Part shown: piece by piece, positions 1 through 26,306 of the stretch
Position numbering within the stretch: the stretch's first letter is position 1
How the letters are laid out: each line of letters opens with the position of its first letter
Assembly: GCA_029548445.1 (NCBI GenBank)
Contig: JAKPNJ010000247.1
Location: 1 to 34,713, forward strand
Reading direction: 5' to 3'
DNA: 34,713 nt
Source: Bacillota bacterium
Lineage (GTDB): Bacteria > Bacillota > Clostridia > Saccharofermentanales > UBA5734
Made by a program: the position numbers and the translations under genes
The notes under the pieces: model-generated
What the model was told of the DNA's origin: nothing
Databases searched by the model: none
The model's input: only the letters and a program-made list of their open reading frames with translations

Positions 1-930
1 CCAGCGATGGTCGGGCGCGATCTCTGCGTCCGACAGCATGAAATACTTCCGGCGAACCTTGGTGGACCCGATGGGGTCGTTCCAGGTAAAGTCCATGTGG
101 TACCAGGTTCCGCCCGCCTTGACCAGGTTCCAGGCGTGGCCGCCCCAGCCGCCCGTTACGTTGGACAGCGCCTCGGGATAGAAATCGGTCCCGGCCGCGT
201 TCTTTCTTGGCAGGATGTTGCGGACGGAATACCCGGCCTGGATCAGGACCGCATATCCATACTGGGTATACGCCTGGCAAACGCCCTCACCCGTGGAGAC
301 CAGCTCGTAGGCTGTGTATTTGCTGTAGGTCTGGTCGTAGTTGAAGGTCGTGCCGATGTATTGGTTGATGGCGTCGAGACGGGCATCGTCCCCTACCTTC
401 GAACGGAAGGCGGAGGATGCCACAAAGGCCTCGGCGTGGGCGAACACCGCCTGCTTCTGCGCCTTGGTCTCGCGCCAGTTCAGGGTCAGGGTGACGGTGG
501 CGTGCTTCGAGCTGTACGACAGGCTGAGGCCGCCGCCGCCGTAGATCCCGAGCATGTAGTCGTTGCCGGTTCGGTTCAGCTGGTCGGAGAAAAGCGGCAG
601 CAGCGCCTTGTACTGGGTCGAGAGATAGGAGATGGCGACAGGGGTTCCGGCTTCCAGGATGAGCTTGTCCGGATTGCCGACATGCTGGTCGATAGCGTCC
701 TGGTAGGCGTCGCGGATGGAGGCGATCACGTCGGCATCCGTGGAGCCGCTGATTGTGACACTGAGGTCGGCGGCCAGGACGTCCGTCGGCGCGACTCCGG
801 GAAGGCGGGGCGCCAGCGGAGACAGGAGCAGCGCCAGGGTTGCGAGGCCCGAAAACAGGGCGGCCAGCATCCTGGAAACGCGACGGCGGGGCCGATCGGA
901 CGGACACGGGATGGATCCAATTAAAAACAT
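1..930 (-). CDS. Transglutaminase-like (Cys-His-Asp core) secreted/surface protein, partial; C-terminus lies beyond the window start. Paralog of the next gene.
   Basis: Reverse-strand translation gives MFLIGSIPCPSDRPRRRVSRMLAALFSGLATLALLLSPLAP... and ...GVCQAYTQYGY...GGWGGHAWNLVKAGGTWYHMDFTWNDPIGST, the transglutaminase core motif. It is collinear with the 1134..2681 protein. The annotated + ORF 7..924 is its antisense. The ATG at 930 is preceded by GAAAGAAGG. Confidence 0.7.
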   Translation of the reverse strand, partial: MFLIGSIPCPSDRPRRRVSRMLAALFSGLATLALLLSPLAPRLPGVAPTDVLAADLSVTISGSTDADVIASIRDAYQDAIDQHVGNPDKLILEAGTPVAISYLSTQYKALLPLFSDQLNRTGNDYMLGIYGGGGLSLSYSSKHATVTLTLNWRETKAQKQAVFAHAEAFVASSAFRSKVGDDARLDAINQYIGTTFNYDQTYSKYTAYELVSTGEGVCQAYTQYGYAVLIQAGYSVRNILPRKNAAGTDFYPEALSNVTGGWGGHAWNLVKAGGTWYHMDFTWNDPIGSTKVRRKYFMLSDAEIAPDHRW

Positions 931-1133: not shown

Positions 1134-2681
1134 CTACATTCCATCGAGCCATGAAAGGAAGGCAAAGGCCAGCAGGACCAGGATCGTGCCGCCGCCCAGG
1201 CCCGCCGCGACTGCAAACAGGACAGGCTTCTGCAGAAGGGATGCCAGGGCGGAACGGAGATAGGCGCCGGGTCCGCGGTTCGCCGGGACTCCATCGTCCG
1301 GGTCGCCTTCCGTTCGGGACGAATTGTCGCCGGAATCCAGGGGATCCGGCTCGTCGGTAATGGAGGCGTCCGGCAGGTCGGTAGGATCGGGGGATGGCAC
1401 CGGGGACGGCGTCCTTGTGGGATCGACAGGTCCCTCGGGCGGCGTCGGCGACTGCGGTAACCCGGTGGGATCGGGGGTGGAAGCGGTTGTTGGGGCCGGA
1501 GCGTCCGTGGGGCGGGCTGTCGGCAAAGGGGCCGGCGTCGATGTCGGCTTCGGGGTCGGCGTCGGCTTGGGGGTCGGCGGCGGGAGATCGGTGGGATATG
1601 GGTTGTGTGGGTTCCAGGAGGCGGTGGCGGCGGGATAGACGCCGGTCGGGCCGGGCCATCTGTGGTCGGGCCGGATTTCGGCGTCGGAAAGCATATAGTA
1701 CTTCTTTCGAACCGAGTCCGACCCGATGGGGTCGTTCCAGGTGAAGTCCATATGGTACCACCGGTTGCCGACCCGGACCAGGTTCCAGGCATGGCCGCCC
1801 CAGCTGCCGGTATAATTGGAGTAGCCCTCGGGATAATAATCCTTCCCGTTGGCATCCTTGCGCGGCAAGACATTCCGGACTGTAAACCCGGCCTCCGTCA
1901 GGATGGCGTATCCATACTGGGCGTACGCCTGGCAGACGCCGGATCCTTCCGTGATCAGCTCATGGGCCGTATGGTTGTAGGACTCCCGATCGTCCGGGTC
2001 GCTGTAGCGGAACGACCGGGCGACGAAGGTGTTGATGGCGTCGAGGCGGGCATCGACGGTCGTCAGGTCCCTGTAGGCGGATGAATCCAGGAAGGCCCGG
2101 GCATGGGTAAAGACCGCTTCCGTCTGCTCCCGGGTTTCCCGCCATCCGATGGTGAACGTTGCGGATGCACGGGAAGTGCCTGGCGACACATTCAGTGTCG
2201 TGCCGCCATAGATACCCAGCAAGTAGTCGTTGCCGGCCTTGTTGAACTGGTCCGAAAGGAGGGGCAGCAGCCGCTTGTACTGGGTCGATAAAAAGGAAAT
2301 GGCGGCCTGGCTCTTGGGATCGGCCCGGAGGATCCAGACATCGGCGATCCGGGTAGTGCCATCCACCAGGACCCGGGATCCCTTGTGTCCGTCGAACATG
2401 GCCTGGTAGGCGGTCCGGATGGAGGCGATGACCTCCGCCTCGTTGGCCCCGCGAATCCAGAGTTCCGGTTGCGCGACATCCGCAGCCAGGACGACCGCCG
2501 ACGTCTCGCCGGCGAAGGGGGCCCTGGCTGAGAGAGGCGACAGGAGGAGGGCCAGCACGACCCATCCGCAGGCGACCGGACGGATCCAGCGGCTGGACCG
2601 GATGCGCCGCAGCAGCGTGCGACAAGGAACTGGGGCCTCGATGGGAAGCGGTCTTCCCATGGGGTCTCGTCGAGGGTACAT
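1134..2681 (-). CDS. Transglutaminase-like surface protein with signal peptide, PT-rich linker and C-terminal hydrophobic anchor
   Basis: Core motif GSGVCQAYAQYGYAILTEAGF...GHAWNLVRVGNRWYHMDFTWNDPIG. N-terminal signal-like LALLLSPLSARA. Long P/T-rich linker (PTPKPTPTPKPTSTPAPLPT...). C-terminal hydrophobic stretch. Start chosen at MYPRR (2681) because it has the RBS AAAGGAcggacATG; alternative starts are 2732 and 2660. Confidence 0.8.
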   Translation of the reverse strand: MYPRRDPMGRPLPIEAPVPCRTLLRRIRSSRWIRPVACGWVVLALLLSPLSARAPFAGETSAVVLAADVAQPELWIRGANEAEVIASIRTAYQAMFDGHKGSRVLVDGTTRIADVWILRADPKSQAAISFLSTQYKRLLPLLSDQFNKAGNDYLLGIYGGTTLNVSPGTSRASATFTIGWRETREQTEAVFTHARAFLDSSAYRDLTTVDARLDAINTFVARSFRYSDPDDRESYNHTAHELITEGSGVCQAYAQYGYAILTEAGFTVRNVLPRKDANGKDYYPEGYSNYTGSWGGHAWNLVRVGNRWYHMDFTWNDPIGSDSVRKKYYMLSDAEIRPDHRWPGPTGVYPAATASWNPHNPYPTDLPPPTPKPTPTPKPTSTPAPLPTARPTDAPAPTTASTPDPTGLPQSPTPPEGPVDPTRTPSPVPSPDPTDLPDASITDEPDPLDSGDNSSRTEGDPDDGVPANRGPGAYLRSALASLLQKPVLFAVAAGLGGGTILVLLAFAFLSWLDGM

Positions 2682-2877
2682 GTCCGTCCTTTGGCGGCGG
2701 CAAGCGCCGATTGCCTTGCGCGGCCGATGCATCGCACTGGGGCGACCTGTATCGGGCCGGCCTTGGCAGGGGCGTTCCGAATGGACCTGTATGTTTTTGT
2801 AACACGGCCCACGGGCTGTGTCAAACCCCGGAACCTTTCAGTTGTATTGCAAAACCGCTATCCATGCGGCGATTCGG

Positions 2878-2906
2878 TTGATGTCGATGTTGTATGGTAT
2901 TATATT
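2878..2906 (+). promoter_or_regulatory. Putative sigma-70 promoter (TTGATG-N17-TATATT) for the beta-helix lipoprotein gene, inside an AT-rich island
   Basis: ttgatg at 2878-2883, a 17-nt spacer, tatatt at 2901-2906, in the only AT-rich stretch of the region. About 100 nt upstream of the ATG at 3006. Confidence 0.4.
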
Positions 2907-3005
2907 TGGGTTATATGTAGACTTATCTTATATGCGATGTTATATTCTTCTTATCTGCTTACAGCATCCGCTCGCCGTATCGGTCGACCGAAAGGATGAT
3001 CCGCC

Positions 3006-5594
3006 ATGATCCAGCCCGCCTCCAGGCCCATGCCCCTCCGTCTCCTGCTGCGGCCGCGGGTCCGGCTCCTGTCGCTGCTGCTGGTCCTGACCCTGCTTGT
3101 CCCCCTGGCCGGGTGCGCACGCCCGACACCGGGACCCTCCGGCGGCAAAACCCCGACGCCCGCCGAAGACCCCGCCGTGGCCCCGGAGATCCGGATCCTG
3201 GCGGACGAGCCCTTCGAGACGCCTCCCGGGGACTGGAGCCACCTGACTGATCGGAACAACCTGGAGCTGGTCCCCATGGAGCCGGGAACCCCGCTGTATC
3301 CGGCCCCCCGGGGACAGCAGGTCCTGGGCGTCACGTCGGGGCGCATGGAGCTGTTCCGGGACCTGGGCCCCATGGAGCCGGACACGGTCTATACCCTGAC
3401 CCTGTCCGTGGCCTCCGCCTCTCCGACCAACCTGGGGAGCCTGTCTGTCTCGCTGCTGGATCCGGCCACCGGCAAGGCCCATGCCCTGGGGTTCTCCGCC
3501 CAGGGTGCCTCCTTCAAGGTGGACGCCGTGGTCTGGAACCGGGTGACCCTGGTCGTGGACACCTCCGCCCTGTCGGAAACCGAGCGGTCCGGCCACCTGG
3601 CCTTTGAAATCCGGGGCAGCCTGGTCTATGTGGACGATCTCCTGGTAACCGCCCGCCGCCGGCGGGCCATGACCTTCCACGTCAGCGCGTCGGAGGGAAG
3701 CGGGGACGAAACCGGCAGCCTGGCGAACCCATTCGATTCGTTCCGGATCCTCAACGGCACCCGCCTGTTGCCCGGGGACCGGGTCCTGGTCCGGCGGGGC
3801 GATACCTTCCGGGAGCGGGTCTACCTGACGGGCAAGGGCGAGACGGAACGGCCGATCCGGATCGAGCCGTACGGGGAAGGCGCCATGCCGTTGATCACGC
3901 TGGGCGAGAACCGGCGGACCGACGTGGCCCTGACCTATGAAAACGCGAGCCATGTCCGGATCGCCGGGCTGCACATGGAAAACGCGAAAATCGGGCTCTA
4001 CCTGCGGTACTACAAGGACTACGGGAACCGCGACGTGGTGGTGGAGGACTGCCTGTTCCGGAAGATGGACGATCTCTACTGCGCGCCCCAGGAGTACCAG
4101 AACGAGCTGGGCTTCTCGTCGGGCATCTGGCTGTCCGGCTTCAATCCGGGCGGGGCGTCGGACGTCCTGGACGGGCTTGTCCTGCGGAGCAACCGCTTCG
4201 AGTATTGTACCTCGGGGTTCAATACCAACTGGTTCTATTTCGATCCCGTCGGCCATCCGAAGGACATCCTGCGGAATGTGCTCGTGGAGGGGGGCCATGC
4301 CCTGGCCAGTTCCGTGGCGGGATCCCTGCTGATCCAGTGGACCGACGGGGTTGTCATCCGGCACTTCCGGCAGTTCGGCCGGAATCCCCTGGCGGAGACC
4401 GAGTGGTTCCTGTGGGGGTCCACGGGGCTCATGATCGGCAGCAGCCAAAACATCCTGGTCGAGAACAGCGAATTCGCCGATGTGGACCGGTTCGCCGACA
4501 ACAAGGCCCTGATGCAGGAGCTGGCGGACAACCCCGAGCGGATGCGGGAGCTGGCCGGCAGCCTGCCGCTCTATTTCGGGCTCCACCAGGCGTTCAGCGG
4601 GGACGCTTCCGGGGTGGACATCGACGGCAACAACGAAAACGTCACCTTTCGGAACAACGTCGTCCACGACAACGACGGTATGGGGCTGCAGCTGCTGACC
4701 ACCCTGGGGGCCAACCGGAACGTGGTCATCGAGGGCTGCACCTTTTACAACAACGGCACCAATGTGAAAAACAAGTGGGAGGTCCGCTCCTTCGAGTGGA
4801 ACGGCAGCGAGTGGGTCATCGAGTACGACACCAGCCGCTACCTGTTCGGCGGGGACGCCTGGGAGGTCAAGCTCGACACGGCCGCCTCGGGCCGGTTGGC
4901 GGACGTCCGGCTTTACCGGGCGGACGAATCCTTCGGCTGGGTGTCCCGGAGCGGAATCCAGTTCTCCCGGTCCGGGATCGGCGAGCTCTGGTACCGGGAT
5001 GTCCGGGACCTGCCGTCCGAAGTCCGGCCCGACCGCAGCGGGACCGTCCTGTCGGACGCGGAGACCGACCCTGTGGCGGGTACCGGCGTTGTGGAGATCG
5101 GGCCCCTGTTCCTCAACGGATTCCAGCGGCCGATTCTCGAACTGGACCTGTCGGTGTCGGCGGGGGAGCGGGCCAGGGTGTATTACATCACGGACCTGGA
5201 CCGGGACTACAGCCCGGACCGCTGGTTCGACGTGCCCCTGCAGGGCGAGGCCGCCGGCCACGTCGACACCCTGGCGGACGGGTTCAAGGGCGTTCTCGTG
5301 GGCCTCCGGATCCGGCCGTCGGACGAAGCCGGCGCGGAATACACCCTGCGGTCGGTCCGGTTCGCGGAAAAACCGGATCCGTCCGCCACCCCCGGTGTCT
5401 CCGGTACGCCGGCGACGACGACGCCGTCTGCGGACGGCGGATCCGACACCCGGGTTCCCCTGGGCACGACGCTGCTGCTGCTGGGATTGGCCCTGGCAGC
5501 GGGCCTGCTGCTGGCCCTGGGCCTCCGGCGGGTCAGCCGGGGCGGGCGCCGCCCCGGGGCGCCGACGGATCCGCCTTCCGGAACGCCCGGCTGA
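3006..5594 (+). CDS. Large cell-surface lipoprotein with right-handed parallel beta-helix (pectin-lyase-fold) repeats, PT-rich linker and C-terminal TM anchor
   Basis: N-terminus MIQPASRPMPLRLLLRPRVRLLSLLLVLTLLVPLAGC carries a lipobox (LAGC). Beta-helix repeat signatures: NNVVHDNDGMGLQLL, VIEGCTFYNNGTNV, HVRIAGLHMENAKIGLYL. C-terminal PATTTPSADGG linker, then LLLLGLALAAGLLLALGL and RRVSRGGRR. Confidence 0.8.
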   Translation: MIQPASRPMPLRLLLRPRVRLLSLLLVLTLLVPLAGCARPTPGPSGGKTPTPAEDPAVAPEIRILADEPFETPPGDWSHLTDRNNLELVPMEPGTPLYPAPRGQQVLGVTSGRMELFRDLGPMEPDTVYTLTLSVASASPTNLGSLSVSLLDPATGKAHALGFSAQGASFKVDAVVWNRVTLVVDTSALSETERSGHLAFEIRGSLVYVDDLLVTARRRRAMTFHVSASEGSGDETGSLANPFDSFRILNGTRLLPGDRVLVRRGDTFRERVYLTGKGETERPIRIEPYGEGAMPLITLGENRRTDVALTYENASHVRIAGLHMENAKIGLYLRYYKDYGNRDVVVEDCLFRKMDDLYCAPQEYQNELGFSSGIWLSGFNPGGASDVLDGLVLRSNRFEYCTSGFNTNWFYFDPVGHPKDILRNVLVEGGHALASSVAGSLLIQWTDGVVIRHFRQFGRNPLAETEWFLWGSTGLMIGSSQNILVENSEFADVDRFADNKALMQELADNPERMRELAGSLPLYFGLHQAFSGDASGVDIDGNNENVTFRNNVVHDNDGMGLQLLTTLGANRNVVIEGCTFYNNGTNVKNKWEVRSFEWNGSEWVIEYDTSRYLFGGDAWEVKLDTAASGRLADVRLYRADESFGWVSRSGIQFSRSGIGELWYRDVRDLPSEVRPDRSGTVLSDAETDPVAGTGVVEIGPLFLNGFQRPILELDLSVSAGERARVYYITDLDRDYSPDRWFDVPLQGEAAGHVDTLADGFKGVLVGLRIRPSDEAGAEYTLRSVRFAEKPDPSATPGVSGTPATTTPSADGGSDTRVPLGTTLLLLGLALAAGLLLALGLRRVSRGGRRPGAPTDPPSGTPG

Positions 5595-20332: not shown

Positions 20333-21028
20333 TCAGCCCTGGCCGTAGGTGGCGGTCCGGCCGTGCTTCCGCAGGTAGTGCCGATCCAGGAGGAAGCTGT
20401 CGATGGGCTGCTTGTCCGGCCGCAGCAGGCGGGTGTGGAACGCCATCCTGGCGCACTCCTCCAGGATGACCGCGTGGTGGACCGCCTCCACGGCGTCCCG
20501 GCCCCAGGCGAAGGGCCCGTGGTCGGCCACCAGGACCGCCGGGATCGCGTCCGCCGTCAGTCCCCGCTCCTGGAAAGTCTCGATGATCACGGCGCCGGTG
20601 TTGGCCTCGTATTCGCCCTCGATCTCCTCCCGGGTCATGTTTCGGGTGCAGGGCACGGAGCCGTAGAACGTATCCGCGTGGGTCGTGCCGTAGGCCGGCA
20701 GGTCGAGGCCGGCCTGGGCGAAGATCGTGGCCCAGTGGGAATGGGTGTGGACGATGCCGCCGATGCCGGGAAAGGCCTTGTACAGCGCCAGGTGGGTCGC
20801 CGTGTCCGTGCTGGGCCGGTAGGTGCCGGACACCACCCGCCCGTCCAGGTCCACCACCACGATGTGCCGTTCCTCCATGCCCTCGTAGGGCACGCCGCTG
20901 GGCTTGATGGCCACGAGCCCCTTCTCCCGGTCGATGGAGCTGACGTTCCCCCAGGTAAAGGTCACCAGGCCGTACTCGGGCAGCAGGAGATTGGCCTCCA
21001 GGGTCTTGCGGATGATGGGCTGGATCAT
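20333..21028 (-). CDS. araD: L-ribulose-5-phosphate 4-epimerase
   Basis: Near-colinear with E. coli AraD: [79 protein letters not shown]. Start overlaps the araB stop (ATGA). Confidence 0.95.
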
Positions 21029-22713
21029 GTCACGCCTCCTTCCCGCGCCTGCCGGCGGATCTCCTTCAGGCGCTTCATGACGTCGTTCTCCCCCCGGCCG
21101 AAGTAGTCGTGGAGAATCCGGTACTCGGCGTACAGGCGGTCATAGACCTCGGCATGGGCCGGATTCGGCCGGTAGACCAGGTCCTTCAGCCGGGGCATGA
21201 CCCTGGCCGCCTCGAAGATGGAGTTGTACCCGCCCCGGGCCTTCCCCGCCGCCACGGCCCCGAACATGGCGGAGCCCAGGGCCACGGTCTGGTCGCTGGC
21301 GGAAATGCGGAACTCCCGGCGGGTCACGTCGGCGTAGATCTGCATCATCATGGGGTCCTTGGAGGCGATGCCGCCGCAGGCCAGGATCTCCCGGACCGGG
21401 ACGCCGTTGGCCTCGAAGGTCTCGATGATCATGCGGGTCCCGTAGGCGGTGGCCTCGATGAGGGCCCGGTAAATCTCCTCCGGCCGGGTGGCCAGGGTCA
21501 GGCCCACCATCATGCCGGTCAGGTCCACGTCCACCAGCACCGACCGGTTGCCGTTCCACCAGTCCAGGGCCAGGAGGCCGCTTTCGCCGGGCTTCTGGAC
21601 CGAGGCCTTCTCCCGGAGCAGGGCGTGGATGCCCAGTCCCCGCGCCTCGGCTTCCTTCCGATAGGATTCGGGCACGCAGGTGCGCACGAACCAGTCGAAG
21701 TGGTCGCCCACGCAGGACTGGCCGGCCTCGTATCCCAGGTACCCGGGCAGGATGCCGTCTTCCACGACGCCGCACATCCCCGGCACGTTGTGCTCCTCGG
21801 TGCCCAGGATCATGTGGCACGTGGACGTGCCCATGATCATCAGCATCCGGCCCTCTTCGGCGATCCCCACAGCCGGGACCGCCACATGGGCGTCCACATT
21901 GCCCACCGCCACCGCAGTGCCGGGCAGCAGGCCGGTCAGCTCCGCCCCCCGGGCGTTGATCTCCCCGGCCTTCTCCCCGATGGGACGAATGTTCCGGGAG
22001 AGCTTCTCGTCCACCACATGCTCCAGGGCCGGGTCCAGGGCCTTGAAAAATTCGTTGGAGGGGTAGCCGTCGCGCTTGTGCCACATGGCCTTGTAGCCGG
22101 CGGTGCAGCTGTTCCGGGCCTCGACGCCGGTCAGGAGGAGGACGATCCAGTCCGTGGCCTCCAGGAAGCGGTCGGCGGCTGTGTAAATGTGGGGCGCTTC
22201 GTCCAGGACCTGCCAGATCTTCGGGAAGAGCCATTCGGAGGAGATCTTCCCGCCGTACCGGGCCAGGAAGGCCTCGCCCCGCCGGGCCGCCACGGCGTTC
22301 AGCCGGTTGGCTTCGTCCTGGGCCGCATGGTGCTTCCATTTCTTCACATAGGCATGGGGCTCCTTCCGGAATTCCGGCAGGAAGCACAGTGGCGTTCCTT
22401 CCGCGTCGATGGGCAGGCAGGTGCAGGCGGTAAAGTCGATGCCCACCCCGATCACATCCTCCGGCGACACCCCGGCCTCCTTCAGGACCGCGGGCACCGT
22501 GTCCCGGAGCACCTCGATGTAGTCTTCCGGATCCTGGATCGTCCAGTCATGGGGCAGCCGCTGCCCCGATGCCGGCAGGACGTCCTCGATGAATCCGTGG
22601 GTGTAGTTGCGGACCGCCGTGGCCACTTCCCGGCCCGTGTCCACCTCCACCAGCAGCGCCCTGCCCGACAGGGACCCGAAATCGATGCCCAGCGAATACT
22701 TCCTGTTGCCCAT
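21025..22713 (-). CDS. araB: Ribulokinase (FGGY family)
   Basis: [24 protein letters not shown] is the FGGY N-terminus typical of AraB; the length (562 aa) and C-terminal motifs are consistent. RBS AAGGAGGAACGGAC-ATG. The 18-codon upstream extension in the ORF track is rejected. Confidence 0.93.
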
Positions 22714-22794
22714 GTCCGTTCCTCCTTGCGTGTGCCGTTTCCCGGCCGTTTCCGAACTTCCCTGCATCCCGATTCCTGGTCCCGGTTCGCCCTG

Positions 22795-24027
22795 TTACCC
22801 CGGCGGCGGGCCGGTGCTCCGGCCGGGGATCAGCCGGGCCGGCATCACGAGTTCCCTCGGAGAGGCCGACGGGTCCCGCAGCCGCTCCAGCAGCAGTTCC
22901 ACCGCCCGGACGCCCAGCCGCCTCCGGGGATGGGTCACGGTGGTCAGGCCTCCCAGCCCGCCGTCCCGGTCCGCTCCCGCCGTTCCGGATGCCCCTGCAA
23001 CCCCCGGCCCAGGGCCGTACCAGGCAGACAGCCGGGCCAAGTCGGACCCGTCGAACCCGGTCAGGGAGAGATCCTCCGGAATTCGGACGCCCTTGCGTCC
23101 CATGGCCTCCGCCAGGCGGACCCCAACCTGGTCGTTGTAGCAGCAAAGCGCCGTGGGCCGACGATCGGGCGGACAGGCCAGCCAGCGGTCAGCCGTCCGG
23201 TCCGCCAGGGCGTCGGGGTCCCGCAGGTCCCCGGCGTCGAACCAGAGGAGCAGCCCGGCGTCGTCTTCCCCTGCCGAAAGGCCCAGGTCGGCGATGGCCC
23301 GCCGGAATCCCTCCCGGCGCCGGCATCCCTGGATGTCGTCTTGCTTGAACAGGCCGCCGATCCGCCGATGGCCCAGGCCATGGAGATGCCGGACCAGCCG
23401 GTCCATGCCGCCCTCGTCGTCCGGCCGGACGCAGGAGGCGGCGACGTCGGGCAGGTCGCCGTGGATGAACACCACCGGCATCCGCTCCGCCAGGTGGGCG
23501 ATGGCGGACCGATTGCCCCCGGGAAGGGCGCTGCGGGCGGGCTCCAGGACCAGGCCGTCCATGCCCTGTTCCTGGAGGGTCTGCAGGCAGCGGGCCTCCC
23601 GGGAAGTCGAGTTGCCCGAGGAGGCCATGACCAGGCCCAGGCCGGCCTGCTGCAGCCGTCCGTCGATGCCCTGGAGGATGTCGGTAAAAATATAGTGGTC
23701 GAGGTGGGAAATCAGGACGCCGATCCGGCCGGTGGACCGGGACGGGGCGGCCGCTCCGCCTTTGGATCCGCGGGTCCGGGCAGGGGTCCGGACATAGGTG
23801 CCGCTGCCCCGGGTTCGCTCCAGCAGGCCGTCGTGGGTCAGGTCCGACAGGGCCTGGCGGGCGGTGTTGCGGCTGATCCCGAACCGGGCGGCCAGGTCGT
23901 TTTCGGAGGGAGCCCGGTCCCCCGGGCGGAGGCGGCCTTCCCGGACCAGCCCCCGGATCCATTCCCGGACCTGGACATACTTGGGCTGTCCGTTGGCGGT
24001 GGTCGGCTCCTGTCCGGTTCGGTCCAT
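22795..24027 (-). CDS. araR: AraR-type arabinose repressor (GntR-family N-terminal HTH fused to LacI/GalR-type periplasmic-binding-like effector domain)
   Basis: GntR HTH YVQVREWIRGLVREGRLRPGDRAPSENDLAARFGISRNTARQALSDLTHDGLLERTRGSGTYV is followed by a LacI-type sugar-binding domain. This is the same chimeric architecture as Bacillus AraR. Start at MDRTGQEP. Confidence 0.85.
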   Translation of the reverse strand: MDRTGQEPTTANGQPKYVQVREWIRGLVREGRLRPGDRAPSENDLAARFGISRNTARQALSDLTHDGLLERTRGSGTYVRTPARTRGSKGGAAAPSRSTGRIGVLISHLDHYIFTDILQGIDGRLQQAGLGLVMASSGNSTSREARCLQTLQEQGMDGLVLEPARSALPGGNRSAIAHLAERMPVVFIHGDLPDVAASCVRPDDEGGMDRLVRHLHGLGHRRIGGLFKQDDIQGCRRREGFRRAIADLGLSAGEDDAGLLLWFDAGDLRDPDALADRTADRWLACPPDRRPTALCCYNDQVGVRLAEAMGRKGVRIPEDLSLTGFDGSDLARLSAWYGPGPGVAGASGTAGADRDGGLGGLTTVTHPRRRLGVRAVELLLERLRDPSASPRELVMPARLIPGRSTGPPPG

Positions 24028-24055
24028 GGCCCCTCCCCCGGCGTCGCACTCGGGA

Positions 24056-24071
24056 AGTTGTTCATACAACT
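24056..24071 (-). promoter_or_regulatory. AraR-box-like 16-bp palindrome AGTTGTtcatACAACT upstream of araR (likely autoregulatory operator)
   Basis: Perfect 6-bp arms AGTTGT/ACAACT. The half-sites TTGTtc/atACAA match 10 of 12 positions of the Bacillus AraR operator core TTGTAC/GTACAA. Located about 30-45 nt upstream of the araR ATG. Confidence 0.5.
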
Positions 24072-24120
24072 GCCCTGATTTTACCAAGGCGGCGCCCCAG
24101 GGGCAAGGGGACGGCGTCCA

Positions 24121-24740: not shown

Positions 24741-24819
24741 CGGAACCACCTCCGAGATCAGTATATCCCATGTAGATACGTCGAACAAGTCCGGCCAGGC
24801 GGCCCGTCCCAACGGAATA

Positions 24820-25386
24820 CTATGGTTCCGCCGGCCAGAGGTCCCGGTCCAGGTACAGGGCGGCTTCGGACCGAAGGGCACTGTTGGCGTACAGGCTCTC
24901 CTGGTTCGCCAGGATGGACCGCCGGGCCAGCCGGACCGCCGCGTCGGCGTCGCCGGTCCGGGCGGCCTCCCGGGCCGCCCCCAGGCAGGCATGGGCCAGG
25001 AGGATCCGGGCCTCCTCCCGGGCGGGCCCCGCCTCCGGATCGGCCAGGACCGCCTCCGCCCCCTGGATCGCCTCCAGGAACGCGCCGGATCGCAGGGCGC
25101 TTCTCGACGGCCCCAGGGGATCCTCCCACCGGCCGCGACCGGGCGACACGGCCTCGCCGACCGGGTCGGACCCGCGGTCCGGTTCCGGGCCGGCCAGCAG
25201 CTCCGCCTGGGAGATTCCGAGGGCACGGGACAGGGATTCCAGGGTTTTCAGCGACGGCGAGGCGAGGCCGTTCTCGATCTGGCTCAGCATGCTCCGGGTA
25301 ATCCGGTCTCCCGCCAGGTCCTGCTGGGTCATCTGCCGGGCAATCCGAAGTTCCTTGATCCGTCGTCCGATCCGGGCCGGATCCAT
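24820..25386 (-). CDS. XRE-family (Cro/CI HTH) transcriptional regulator with C-terminal TPR-like helical domain
   Basis: IGRRIKELRIARQMTQQDLAGDRITRSMLSQIENGLASPSLKTLESLSRALGIS is the HTH_XRE signature. The C-terminal ~90 aa form helical repeats. Start at MDPARIG (RBS GGGGAGG); upstream extension in the ORF track rejected. Confidence 0.8.
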   Translation of the reverse strand: MDPARIGRRIKELRIARQMTQQDLAGDRITRSMLSQIENGLASPSLKTLESLSRALGISQAELLAGPEPDRGSDPVGEAVSPGRGRWEDPLGPSRSALRSGAFLEAIQGAEAVLADPEAGPAREEARILLAHACLGAAREAARTGDADAAVRLARRSILANQESLYANSALRSEAALYLDRDLWPAEP

Positions 25387-25407
25387 GGGAACACCTCCCC
25401 TCTGAAT

Positions 25408-25455
25408 GTCAATATAATTTACATTCATCCTACCGCGCCGGCCGGAAGATGTCAA
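25408..25455 (-). promoter_or_regulatory. Promoter of the XRE regulator (minus strand TTGACA-N17-TAGGAT) with operator palindrome overlapping the -10/+1 region
   Basis: On the minus strand, TTGACA is the complement of 25450-25455, then a 17-nt spacer, then TAGGAT (complement of 25427-25432). The palindromic site GTCAATataATTTAC (25408-25422) lies immediately downstream. Confidence 0.55.
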
Positions 25456-25489
25456 TTCACCTCCATCGGTCCTTCGAGCCGGAAGGTTC

Positions 25490-25537
25490 TTGACAGGCGG
25501 CGTTCACGGGGATAGAATCATGGTAAACTACATTTAC
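25490..25537 (+). promoter_or_regulatory. Promoter of the nfeD-flotillin operon (TTGACA-N17-TAGAAT) with operator GTAAACtacATTTAC at +1
   Basis: ttgaca at 25490-25495, a 17-nt spacer, tagaat at 25513-25518. A near-perfect 15-bp palindrome occupies 25523-25537, the same motif class as the site in the XRE promoter. Confidence 0.6.
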
Positions 25538-25643
25538 AACCTCGTCGCATCTCCTGTCGATGCGATGGCGCGACACCGCAGGAAGCGGGCGGGCACCAGC
25601 CGGTGCCGGAGCGCACCGGATCGGGTGTGGAAAGGAGCGTTCA

Positions 25644-26306
25644 ATGGCCGCGTGGTGGGAGTCCCTGTCCCTCCTGGAGCGGACTTTCTATTTCATGGCA
25701 ATTCCCGCAACCGCCCTCCTGATCGTGCAGACCGTGCTCCAGGTCGTCGGCCTCAGCCATGCGGCGGACGCGGACCTGCCGCCCGACCTGCCGGCCGACC
25801 TGCCGGCGGACCTCCCTTCCGACCTGCCGGACAGCCCGGGACCGGCCGATGCCGGAATGGATTCGGAAACCGGCCTGGGTGCCGCCACCGAGGCGGGGTC
25901 CCTGCGTCTGCTGACATTCCAGGGCCTGGTGGCGTTCTTTACCCTCTGCGGGTGGACCGGTGTGCTGCTGGCCCATGGCCAGGCCGGAACCGCCGTGACC
26001 ATCGTCGCGGCCCTGGCCGCCGGCCTGGCCGGCCTGTACGGCATGGCCTGGCTGATGCGGGCCCTGCTCCGGCTCCAGTCCAGCGGCAACATCGATGTTC
26101 GGAAAGCCATTGGCCTGGGGGGAGAAGTCTACATCCCCATTCCCCCCGCCCGTTCGGGAAGCGGCAAGGTCACCCTGACCCTCCAGGGCCGCTTCCGGGA
26201 ATATGACGCCGTGACAGAGGGCCCCGACCGGCTTGCGACCGGCACATCCGTCCGCATCGTGGACATCGACCGGGCCAATGTCCTGGTCGTGGAAAAGGAG
26301 GAATAA
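25644..26306 (+). CDS. nfeD: NfeD-family membrane protein (short form, YuaF-like; C-terminal OB-fold), partner of flotillin
   Basis: N-terminal TM helices. Internal (DLPx)5 repeat. C-terminal OB-fold segment GKVTLTLQGRFREYDAVTEGPDRLATGTSVRIVDIDRANVLVVEK. Stop is 4 nt before the flotillin start. RBS GGAAAGGAG. Confidence 0.8.
   Translation: MAAWWESLSLLERTFYFMAIPATALLIVQTVLQVVGLSHAADADLPPDLPADLPADLPSDLPDSPGPADAGMDSETGLGAATEAGSLRLLTFQGLVAFFTLCGWTGVLLAHGQAGTAVTIVAALAAGLAGLYGMAWLMRALLRLQSSGNIDVRKAIGLGGEVYIPIPPARSGSGKVTLTLQGRFREYDAVTEGPDRLATGTSVRIVDIDRANVLVVEKEE
25773..25832 (+). repeat. Five tandem in-frame copies of the 12-bp unit GACCTGCCGGCC encoding (DLPx)5 within nfeD
   Basis: gacctgccgccc / gacctgccggcc / gacctgccggcg / gacctcccttcc / gacctgccggac, translating to DLPPDLPADLPADLPSDLPD. 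Confidence 0.8.

Follow-up and report, generated by a model that had tools for sequence, protein, structure and literature searches.

A putative XRE-family autorepressor and its palindromic operator at nfeD-floT flotillin operons of Clostridia

Does one regulator govern both of the transcription units that diverge from the intergenic region at 25387-25643, and does it tie a flotillin operon to a toxin-antitoxin module? The question is raised by the layout of the 34,713-nt stretch of DNA analysed here (the window), in which a gene for an XRE-family regulator, followed by mazEF, faces away from genes for an NfeD-like and a flotillin-like protein, with a copy of the same palindrome at each of the two promoters between them (Table 1). 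The first-pass annotation had proposed that a single operator gates both promoters, that the adjacent XRE protein is the likely binder, and that flotillin and MazEF expression are coupled. From comparisons of sequence, we consider it probable that the 188-aa XRE protein is an autoregulated dimeric repressor of nfeD-floT acting through GTAAAT-N3-ATTTAC, and that mazEF is a local passenger.

Table 1. Features of the regulator, operon and toxin-antitoxin region of the window.
Feature	Position	Strand	Remarks
MazF/PemK toxin, 123 aa	24121-24492	-	Pfam PemK_toxin PF02452, 4.5e-25; G+C 0.567
MazE antitoxin, 82 aa	24492-24740	-	Pfam MazE_antitoxin PF04014, 4.9e-7; G+C 0.594
Weak candidate mazE promoter, TTGTTC-17-TATACT	24788-24760	-	Sole candidate; predicted start on Shine-Dalgarno GGAGGTG (24754-24748)
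XRE-family regulator, 188 aa	24820-25386	-	HTH_3 domain, linker and five-helix TPR-like remnant; predicted binder of both operators
Extended inverted repeat around O-xre, TGAATGTCAAT / ATTTACATTCA	25403-25427		
Operator O-xre, GTCAATATAATTTAC	25408-25422		Minus-strand reading GTAAATTATATTGAC; 4 nt past XRE promoter -10; over predicted +1
XRE promoter	25427-25455	-	TTGACA (25455-25450), 17-nt spacer, TAGGAT (25432-25427); 10/12 (promoter scan)
nfeD-floT promoter	25490-25518	+	TTGACA (25490-25495), 17-nt spacer, TAGAAT (25513-25518); 11/12 (promoter scan)
Operator O-nfeD, GTAAACTACATTTAC	25523-25537		4 nt past nfeD promoter -10
NfeD-like membrane protein, 220 aa, predicted C-terminal OB-type domain	25644-26306	+	First gene of predicted regulated operon
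Flotillin-type SPFH/Band_7 protein (FloT-like), 464 aa	26310-27704	+	Pfam Band_7

Both palindromes and both diverging, near-consensus sigma-70 promoters proved to lie where the first-pass annotation had placed them, and their occurrence is far beyond chance. Matches to GTAAAYNNNATTKAC with at most one mismatch are found at just two sites in the 34.7-kb window, O-xre and O-nfeD, against 0.06 expected from shuffled windows, and the observed count was reached in none of 100 shuffles; four promoter-like sites were seen in 4 kb, against 0.7 expected. The operators are 115 bp apart, each has one departure from the consensus (GTCAAT, GTAAAC), and both are invariant across six contigs of the source organism (L001-L006). 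Because the gap from the -10 hexamer to the operator is 4 nt at the XRE and nfeD promoters alike, the predicted start site is covered in each case; transcription would be expected to begin near 25420 on the minus strand and near 25525 on the plus strand. The extension of the inverted repeat around O-xre is specific to the source organism, and the flanks of the operator are not conserved in relatives. One contig of the same organism from another sample (L003) has A for G at position 25515, which changes the nfeD -10 hexamer from TAGAAT to TAAAAT.

Transcription would place each copy at the very 5' end of its mRNA, and the copies could therefore be imagined as RNA hairpins of the 5'-UTR, or else as a chance feature of AT-rich promoters. 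We find either idea hardly credible. It is the specific sequence that is conserved, beyond mere pairing ability; a 6-bp A/U stem closed by a 3-nt loop would be very weak; the region has no relevant Rfam match at E<=1; the nfeD 5'-UTR and the XRE-mazE spacer fold ordinarily, with no unusual structure (UTR energies z ~ -0.7); and the shuffled windows argue against chance.

The plus-strand operon opens with a ribosome-binding site, GAAAGGAG, before the nfeD ATG, and floT starts 4 nt after the nfeD stop. The window NfeD protein itself scored 15.6 bits against PF01957 (E=0.019), under the 29.1-bit cut-off; eight of 12 NfeD homologues matched that model, the best at E 3.2e-6, and the best solved structure for the NfeD family profile was the B. 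subtilis NfeD protein YuaF (PDB 2k14, E=0.009). Residues 33-214 of the FloT-like protein matched PF01145 (SPFH/Band_7) at E=1e-25, whereas its score with the NCBIfam FloT model NF058507 was 153 bits against a cut-off of 700; the 464-aa SPFH protein is flotillin-like and is no equivalog of B. subtilis FloT. Given the PF01957 matches of the homologues, the profile match to YuaF and the sub-cut-off match to FloT, nfeD-floT is a fair label. Within nfeD, at 25773-25830, 4.8 copies of a 12-nt tandem repeat, GACCTGCCGGCC, encode the DLPA repeats of an acidic linker; this linker is acidic and variable in length across all homologues.

Close relatives of the regulator are rare: apart from identical copies on the six metagenome contigs of the source organism, in the same gene order, the nearest one shares 40% identity. 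In this nearest relative (L007/L008) the regulator diverges from genes for a 218-aa NfeD protein and a 468-aa Band_7 protein, the nfeD side reading TTGACA-17-TATGAT-acag-GTAAATAAGATTTAC and the regulator side TACAAT-agat-GTAAATCATTTTTAC, so that the gap is 4 nt at both promoters, as in the window. The L007 floT (2645-4028) is spread over three reading frames, and a run of N is present at 4981-4990 in the XRE-proximal intergenic region; these features suggest faulty assembly or a pseudogene, and the L008 version is intact. Longer, distant members of the family, of about 265-300 aa and bearing the signature GDRITRNMLSQIENG-A-PS, lie beside unrelated genes. A palindrome just after the regulator's own -10 is kept in L014 (TACAAT-gcag-GTAAATTATATTTAC) and L011 (TATACT-ggg-GTAAATCATACTTAC), and is absent upstream of the family gene in L010.

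A scan of one genome per species returned 533 relatives of the regulator, all in Bacillota and mostly in Clostridia, the best 80 of which were analysed (L018-L097). Culturable carriers among them include Anaerovorax sp. IOR16 (L023) and Petrocella sp. FN5 (L048), and the module is also present in the complete genome OY764195.2 (L019). A perfect GTAAA-N5-TTTAC lies within 300 nt upstream of 53 of these best 80 of 533, and a site with at most one mismatch upstream of 61, although kinship among loci inflates comparative counts of this kind. In the same set, 75 sites fell in 24 kb of upstream sequence versus 6 in 646 kb of flanks, a density about 334-fold higher. Positions 6 and 10, which had been left free in the search, were 92% T and A, so the true consensus is GTAAAT-N3-ATTTAC; the consensus deduced by the first-pass annotation, GTAAATTATATTTAC, is the commonest operator in related genomes. 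About 19 of the best 80 of 533 family genes have no site within 300 nt, and for many of them the promoter would lie elsewhere, because a co-directional gene abuts upstream and they are second genes of operons.

The link to flotillin genes emerged from the same set. A divergent NfeD homologue, with two operators between it and the regulator, was found upstream in 23 of the best 80 of 533 loci; a FloT gene, its product 70-75% identical, comes next after nfeD in 20 of the 23, and the other three loci end with the contig. Promoters at two-site loci were counted with an anchored regular expression, automatic -10 calling being noisy in AT-rich relatives. On the nfeD side, 24 of 25 read TTGACA-16..18-TAnnnT, a gap of 3-6 nt (exactly 4 nt in 17) and then the operator, and on the regulator side 20 of 25 read TTGnnn-16..18-TAnnnT, again followed by a 3-6 nt gap. 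What recurs in relatives, then, is XRE/nfeD-floT with its two sites; mazEF, whose synteny with that operon had also been raised, is not part of the arrangement. The recurrence of sites in orthologous intergenic regions supports the earlier suggestion that a single operator gates both promoters, with the adjacent XRE protein as its likely binder.

Among the best 80 of 533 loci, all short-form regulators (165-218 aa) are linked to nfeD, and long forms (~300 aa) are either linked (10 loci) or unlinked, which suggests that the short form arose by truncation and became a specialist for the flotillin operon. Paralogues of 400 aa in Bacilli, namely L056, L085 (Paenibacillus) and L094 (Ectobacillus), have TK and not TR before SMLSQIENG and are without the GTAAAT operator. 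The sequence upstream of these genes is AT-rich and contains TTAAATnnnATTAAA-like sequences, which may reflect a shifted specificity or mere AT-richness. Helical phasing of the paired operators, as a sign of looping, was also considered: the genome loci looked suggestive, with R=0.62 at 10.5 bp and p ~0.03 for unique distances, but with the distinct spacings from metagenomes included the phasing fell short of significance (R=0.22, p=0.17).

To avoid circularity, metagenome contigs were also scanned by DNA architecture alone, with the pattern TTGACA-N17-TANAAT-N3-5-GTAAATNNNATTTAC. The scan yielded at least 123 promoter-plus-operator instances on at least 120 contigs, counts that are not independent because many of the contigs belong to a shared set of abundant gut lineages. 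An nfeD homologue lay directly downstream in at least 92 of the 123 matches listed, with the regulator divergent in at least 75 of these; in at least 9 of the 123 listed the regulator gene itself was downstream, and in at least 2 the regulator was divergent and the downstream sequence too short to classify. The XRE/nfeD-floT layout is common to more than 100 related loci, and the module, as judged from its genes and sites, is conserved in Clostridia/Bacillota.

Other genes lay downstream in at least 20 of the 123 matches listed, so the regulon may be broader, or the operator may be shared by paralogues. These genes, which are possible further members of the regulon, include those for DrrA-like ABC ATPases (six of the matches listed: L101, L102, L109, L170, L182 and L211) and, in one match, a short NfeD (1e-13 with PF01957), after which comes a stomatin-type SPFH protein of 329 aa. 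Small membrane proteins, among them one with DUF3592, also occur in this class, as do TrmB-like regulators, a DNA-alkylation-repair protein and ylxM-ffh; the matches outside the ABC ATPase group include those at L133, L137/L197, L142/L185, L156 and L139.

No regulator of the family was found on the contigs of this last class, in stretches of up to 14 kb, and some termite-gut contigs carry the operator at nfeD with no adjoining XRE gene. Both observations would fit a palindrome bound by a different, unlinked transcription factor in whose regulon the XRE gene merely happens to fall. We regard this as quite unlikely. Any trans-acting factor would have unlinked targets, so an operator without an adjoining regulator is to be expected, and in the same termite-gut samples the regulator is found, on other contigs, with an operator of its own. 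Moreover, the gene contexts of the motif vary widely, and the only neighbour that stays constant among them is the XRE-family gene; recognition helix and half-site, too, are both invariant. The alignment shows I29 T30 R31 M33 L34 S35 Q36 I37 E38 N39 of that helix (ITR-MLSQIEN) to be invariant or near-invariant in the family; position 32 is S in the window regulator, where the family usually has N. A near-invariant recognition helix would thus be matched to an invariant operator half-site, and the XRE protein is likely to be the operator binder.

The window regulator carries a Cro/C1-type HTH (Pfam HTH_3 PF01381, E=1.1e-11, residues 10-59). Its AF2 model (pLDDT 88.5) has a five-helix HTH domain at residues 1-64, a disordered linker at 65-90 and a five-helix bundle at 92-177, and the model of a long-form member, P0003 (pLDDT 92), has the HTH followed by about 12 TPR-type helices. 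The label XRE-TPR given by the first-pass annotation is thus roughly right: the HTH is present, but only a five-helix remnant is left of the TPR-like domain of the long members. Profile and fold searches placed PlcR, Rgg2/3, ComR and PrgX on top with modest scores (TM 0.25-0.48). PlcR was the best fold match of P0003 (E 1.4e-5, TM 0.43-0.48), and matches of the window regulator, in which five C-terminal helices are kept, were weaker (E ~1e-3, TM 0.3-0.4). Inspection of the next ORF in L018, L019, L049, L052 and L045 revealed no evident gene for a cognate pro-peptide beside the regulator; that ORF is on the opposite strand and abuts or overlaps the regulator stop, with nfeD on the other side. 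In the window mazE, not a pro-peptide gene, comes next. The family appears RRNPP-like in architecture, with no evident sign of the adjacent pro-peptide gene that is the defining genetic feature of RRNPP systems.

How would such a protein act? A protein bound over +1 is well established to block open-complex formation or promoter escape, and since the operators begin 3-6 nt past the -10 and overlap +1, binding there would be expected to do the same. An XRE dimer on O-xre would cover the regulator's own transcription start, giving negative autoregulation, and one on O-nfeD would cover the start of the strong divergent nfeD-floT promoter, so that RNA polymerase at occupied operators would fail to form the open complex or to escape. 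We infer repression from operator position alone: a near-consensus nfeD promoter, expected to be strong when unoccupied, with an operator over its +1 leads us to read the module as a repressor keeping the operon off, and the regulator's own promoter, in which the -35 is usually weaker but the operator identical in kind, leads us to predict autoregulation. The NfeD/flotillin membrane-scaffold operon would remain off until a signal releases the XRE protein, and this signal is presumably sensed by the C-terminal domain, through its TPR-like helices.

The best fold matches, namely PlcR, Rgg, ComR and PrgX, invite another reading, in which the XRE protein is an activator or a dual regulator and not a plain repressor; PlcR, ComR and Rgg2 are activators among the RRNPP relatives. 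However, an operator 3-6 nt past the -10 and over +1 is typical of steric repression and not of class I/II activation, and the target promoters are already near-consensus (TTGACA-17-TATAAT) and should need no activator. Nor does the RRNPP likeness exclude repression, since RstA of Clostridioides difficile and PrgX are both repressors that work through inverted repeats overlapping promoters, which is also how RstA controls its own expression (PMC6414698). We therefore think activation improbable and retain the XRE protein as a putative repressor.

The place of mazEF in the locus is a separate matter. The mazF start overlaps the mazE stop (TAATG), and the gap between the XRE stop (24820) and the mazE ATG (24740) is 79 nt, with no terminator-like structure. 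Several features could make XRE, MazE and MazF a three-gene toxin-antitoxin unit whose regulator also reaches nfeD-floT, so that flotillin and toxin-antitoxin functions would be coupled: the genes share a strand, no terminator separates them, the only mazE promoter candidate is weak and would start transcription on the Shine-Dalgarno sequence, and an operator-like sequence overlaps its -10. That last sequence, the imperfect palindrome GTATCTACATGGGATATAC at 24761-24775, matches the XRE operator with three mismatches, which is at chance level (about one expected per window), and we rejected it as an operator. We judge such a unit very unlikely, because nfeD-floT is the conserved partner of the XRE family and mazEF is missing from all other loci examined, about 200 in number. 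Homologues of mazE and mazF were seen only in L001-L006, and none was present in the best 80 of 533 genome loci or in 120 metagenome loci among the matches listed; in the 40%-identical relative, a convergent GGDEF gene stands where mazEF would be. The G+C content of mazEF is also some ten points under that of its neighbours, at 0.567-0.594, where the window has 0.673 and the XRE gene 0.73. The flotillin-MazEF coupling put forward in the first-pass annotation thus finds no counterpart in relatives.

The association looks like a recent local insertion and not a designed coupling. Since no terminator precedes mazEF and the sole promoter candidate of the pair is poor, read-through from the XRE promoter is plausible in the source organism, and we suggest that mazEF is a lineage-specific passenger, possibly riding on the regulator transcript. 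A search for insertion scars around mazEF gave only a 21-nt direct repeat (24791-24811 and 24831-24851, 76% identity), by which the XRE-mazE spacer contains a degenerate copy of the last XRE codons; this repeat may have been left by the mazEF insertion or may be a chance occurrence in GC-rich DNA. On the far side of mazF, at 22795-24087 on the minus strand, is a regulator in which a GntR HTH is fused to a LacI-type periplasmic-binding domain (AraR-like architecture); it adjoins an FGGY sugar kinase gene (21025-22767, minus strand), with a class II aldolase further on, and the cluster bordering mazF is an ordinary pentose-utilisation cluster.

Most of what is known about the switching of bacterial flotillin operons comes from Bacillus subtilis (sigma-W, Spo0A/AbrB). 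A predicted local repressor with a sharply defined operator, present in many Clostridia including abundant gut lineages, would offer a handle on such switching: the operator allows the regulon to be predicted by genome scanning, and operator reporters could be used to screen for inducing signals such as membrane fluidisers, bile and solvents. The regulator family, which is without functional names and numbers 665 clusters (50% identity) at E<=1e-30 and 2478 at E<=1e-10, also becomes annotatable; NCBIfam has no specific name for either the window regulator or the window NfeD protein. A tempting over-reading is corrected as well, in that the toxin-antitoxin neighbour appears incidental to the regulator of a flotillin operon. 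More speculatively, and we think this rather doubtful, the family may consist of dedicated sensor-repressors of SPFH/NfeD operons whose TPR-like domain responds to the condition of the membrane or of the NfeD/flotillin assembly itself, in a feedback loop comparable to that of PspA and PspF. If so, flotillin levels in Clostridia would be homeostatic and set by a specific regulator with a small, membrane-related regulon.

The literature, of which our coverage was incomplete, yielded nothing on this regulator, on its operator or on any XRE-type regulator of nfeD-floT; the family, the operator and the link to flotillin operons appear to be undescribed. An XRE autorepressor with a divergent target is itself of a textbook kind. 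The Cro/CI-type autorepressors (phage 434 repressor, SinR, ImmR and the controller C proteins of restriction-modification systems) share with the window family the HTH_3 domain and a short palindromic operator, together with the negative autoregulation and the divergent target in the same intergenic region that are predicted here. However, they act on phage, mobile-element or restriction-modification genes, whereas the target here would be a chromosomal membrane-scaffold operon, and the TPR-like C-terminal domain sets the window family apart. RRNPP regulators (PlcR, Rgg2/3, ComR, PrgX and RstA) appear to resemble it in having an N-terminal XRE HTH followed by TPR-like helical repeats, although the fold match is modest (E of 1e-5 for the long-form member and 1e-3 for the window protein), and the window protein differs in having only five C-terminal helices and no evident adjacent pro-peptide gene. 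The PlcR box, TATGNAN4TNCATA, is unlike the GTAAAT-N3-ATTTAC operator; by analogy, RstA would be the nearest described functional counterpart. Three-gene systems such as paaR-paaA-parE and Xre-RES likewise have an XRE or HTH gene directly upstream of a type II toxin-antitoxin pair on the same strand, but in the window this association is not conserved beyond the source organism, and the regulator family and its operator are tied to nfeD-floT. Finally, the yuaF-floT-yuaI operon of B. subtilis is of the same type, with an NfeD gene and then a flotillin gene. Its floT belongs to the sigma-W regulon, and we know of no dedicated adjacent XRE repressor described for it. B. subtilis floT also responds to Spo0A via AbrB (PMC4409396). 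In contrast, the operon in the window has a near-consensus sigma-70 promoter that is predicted to be gated by a local operator.
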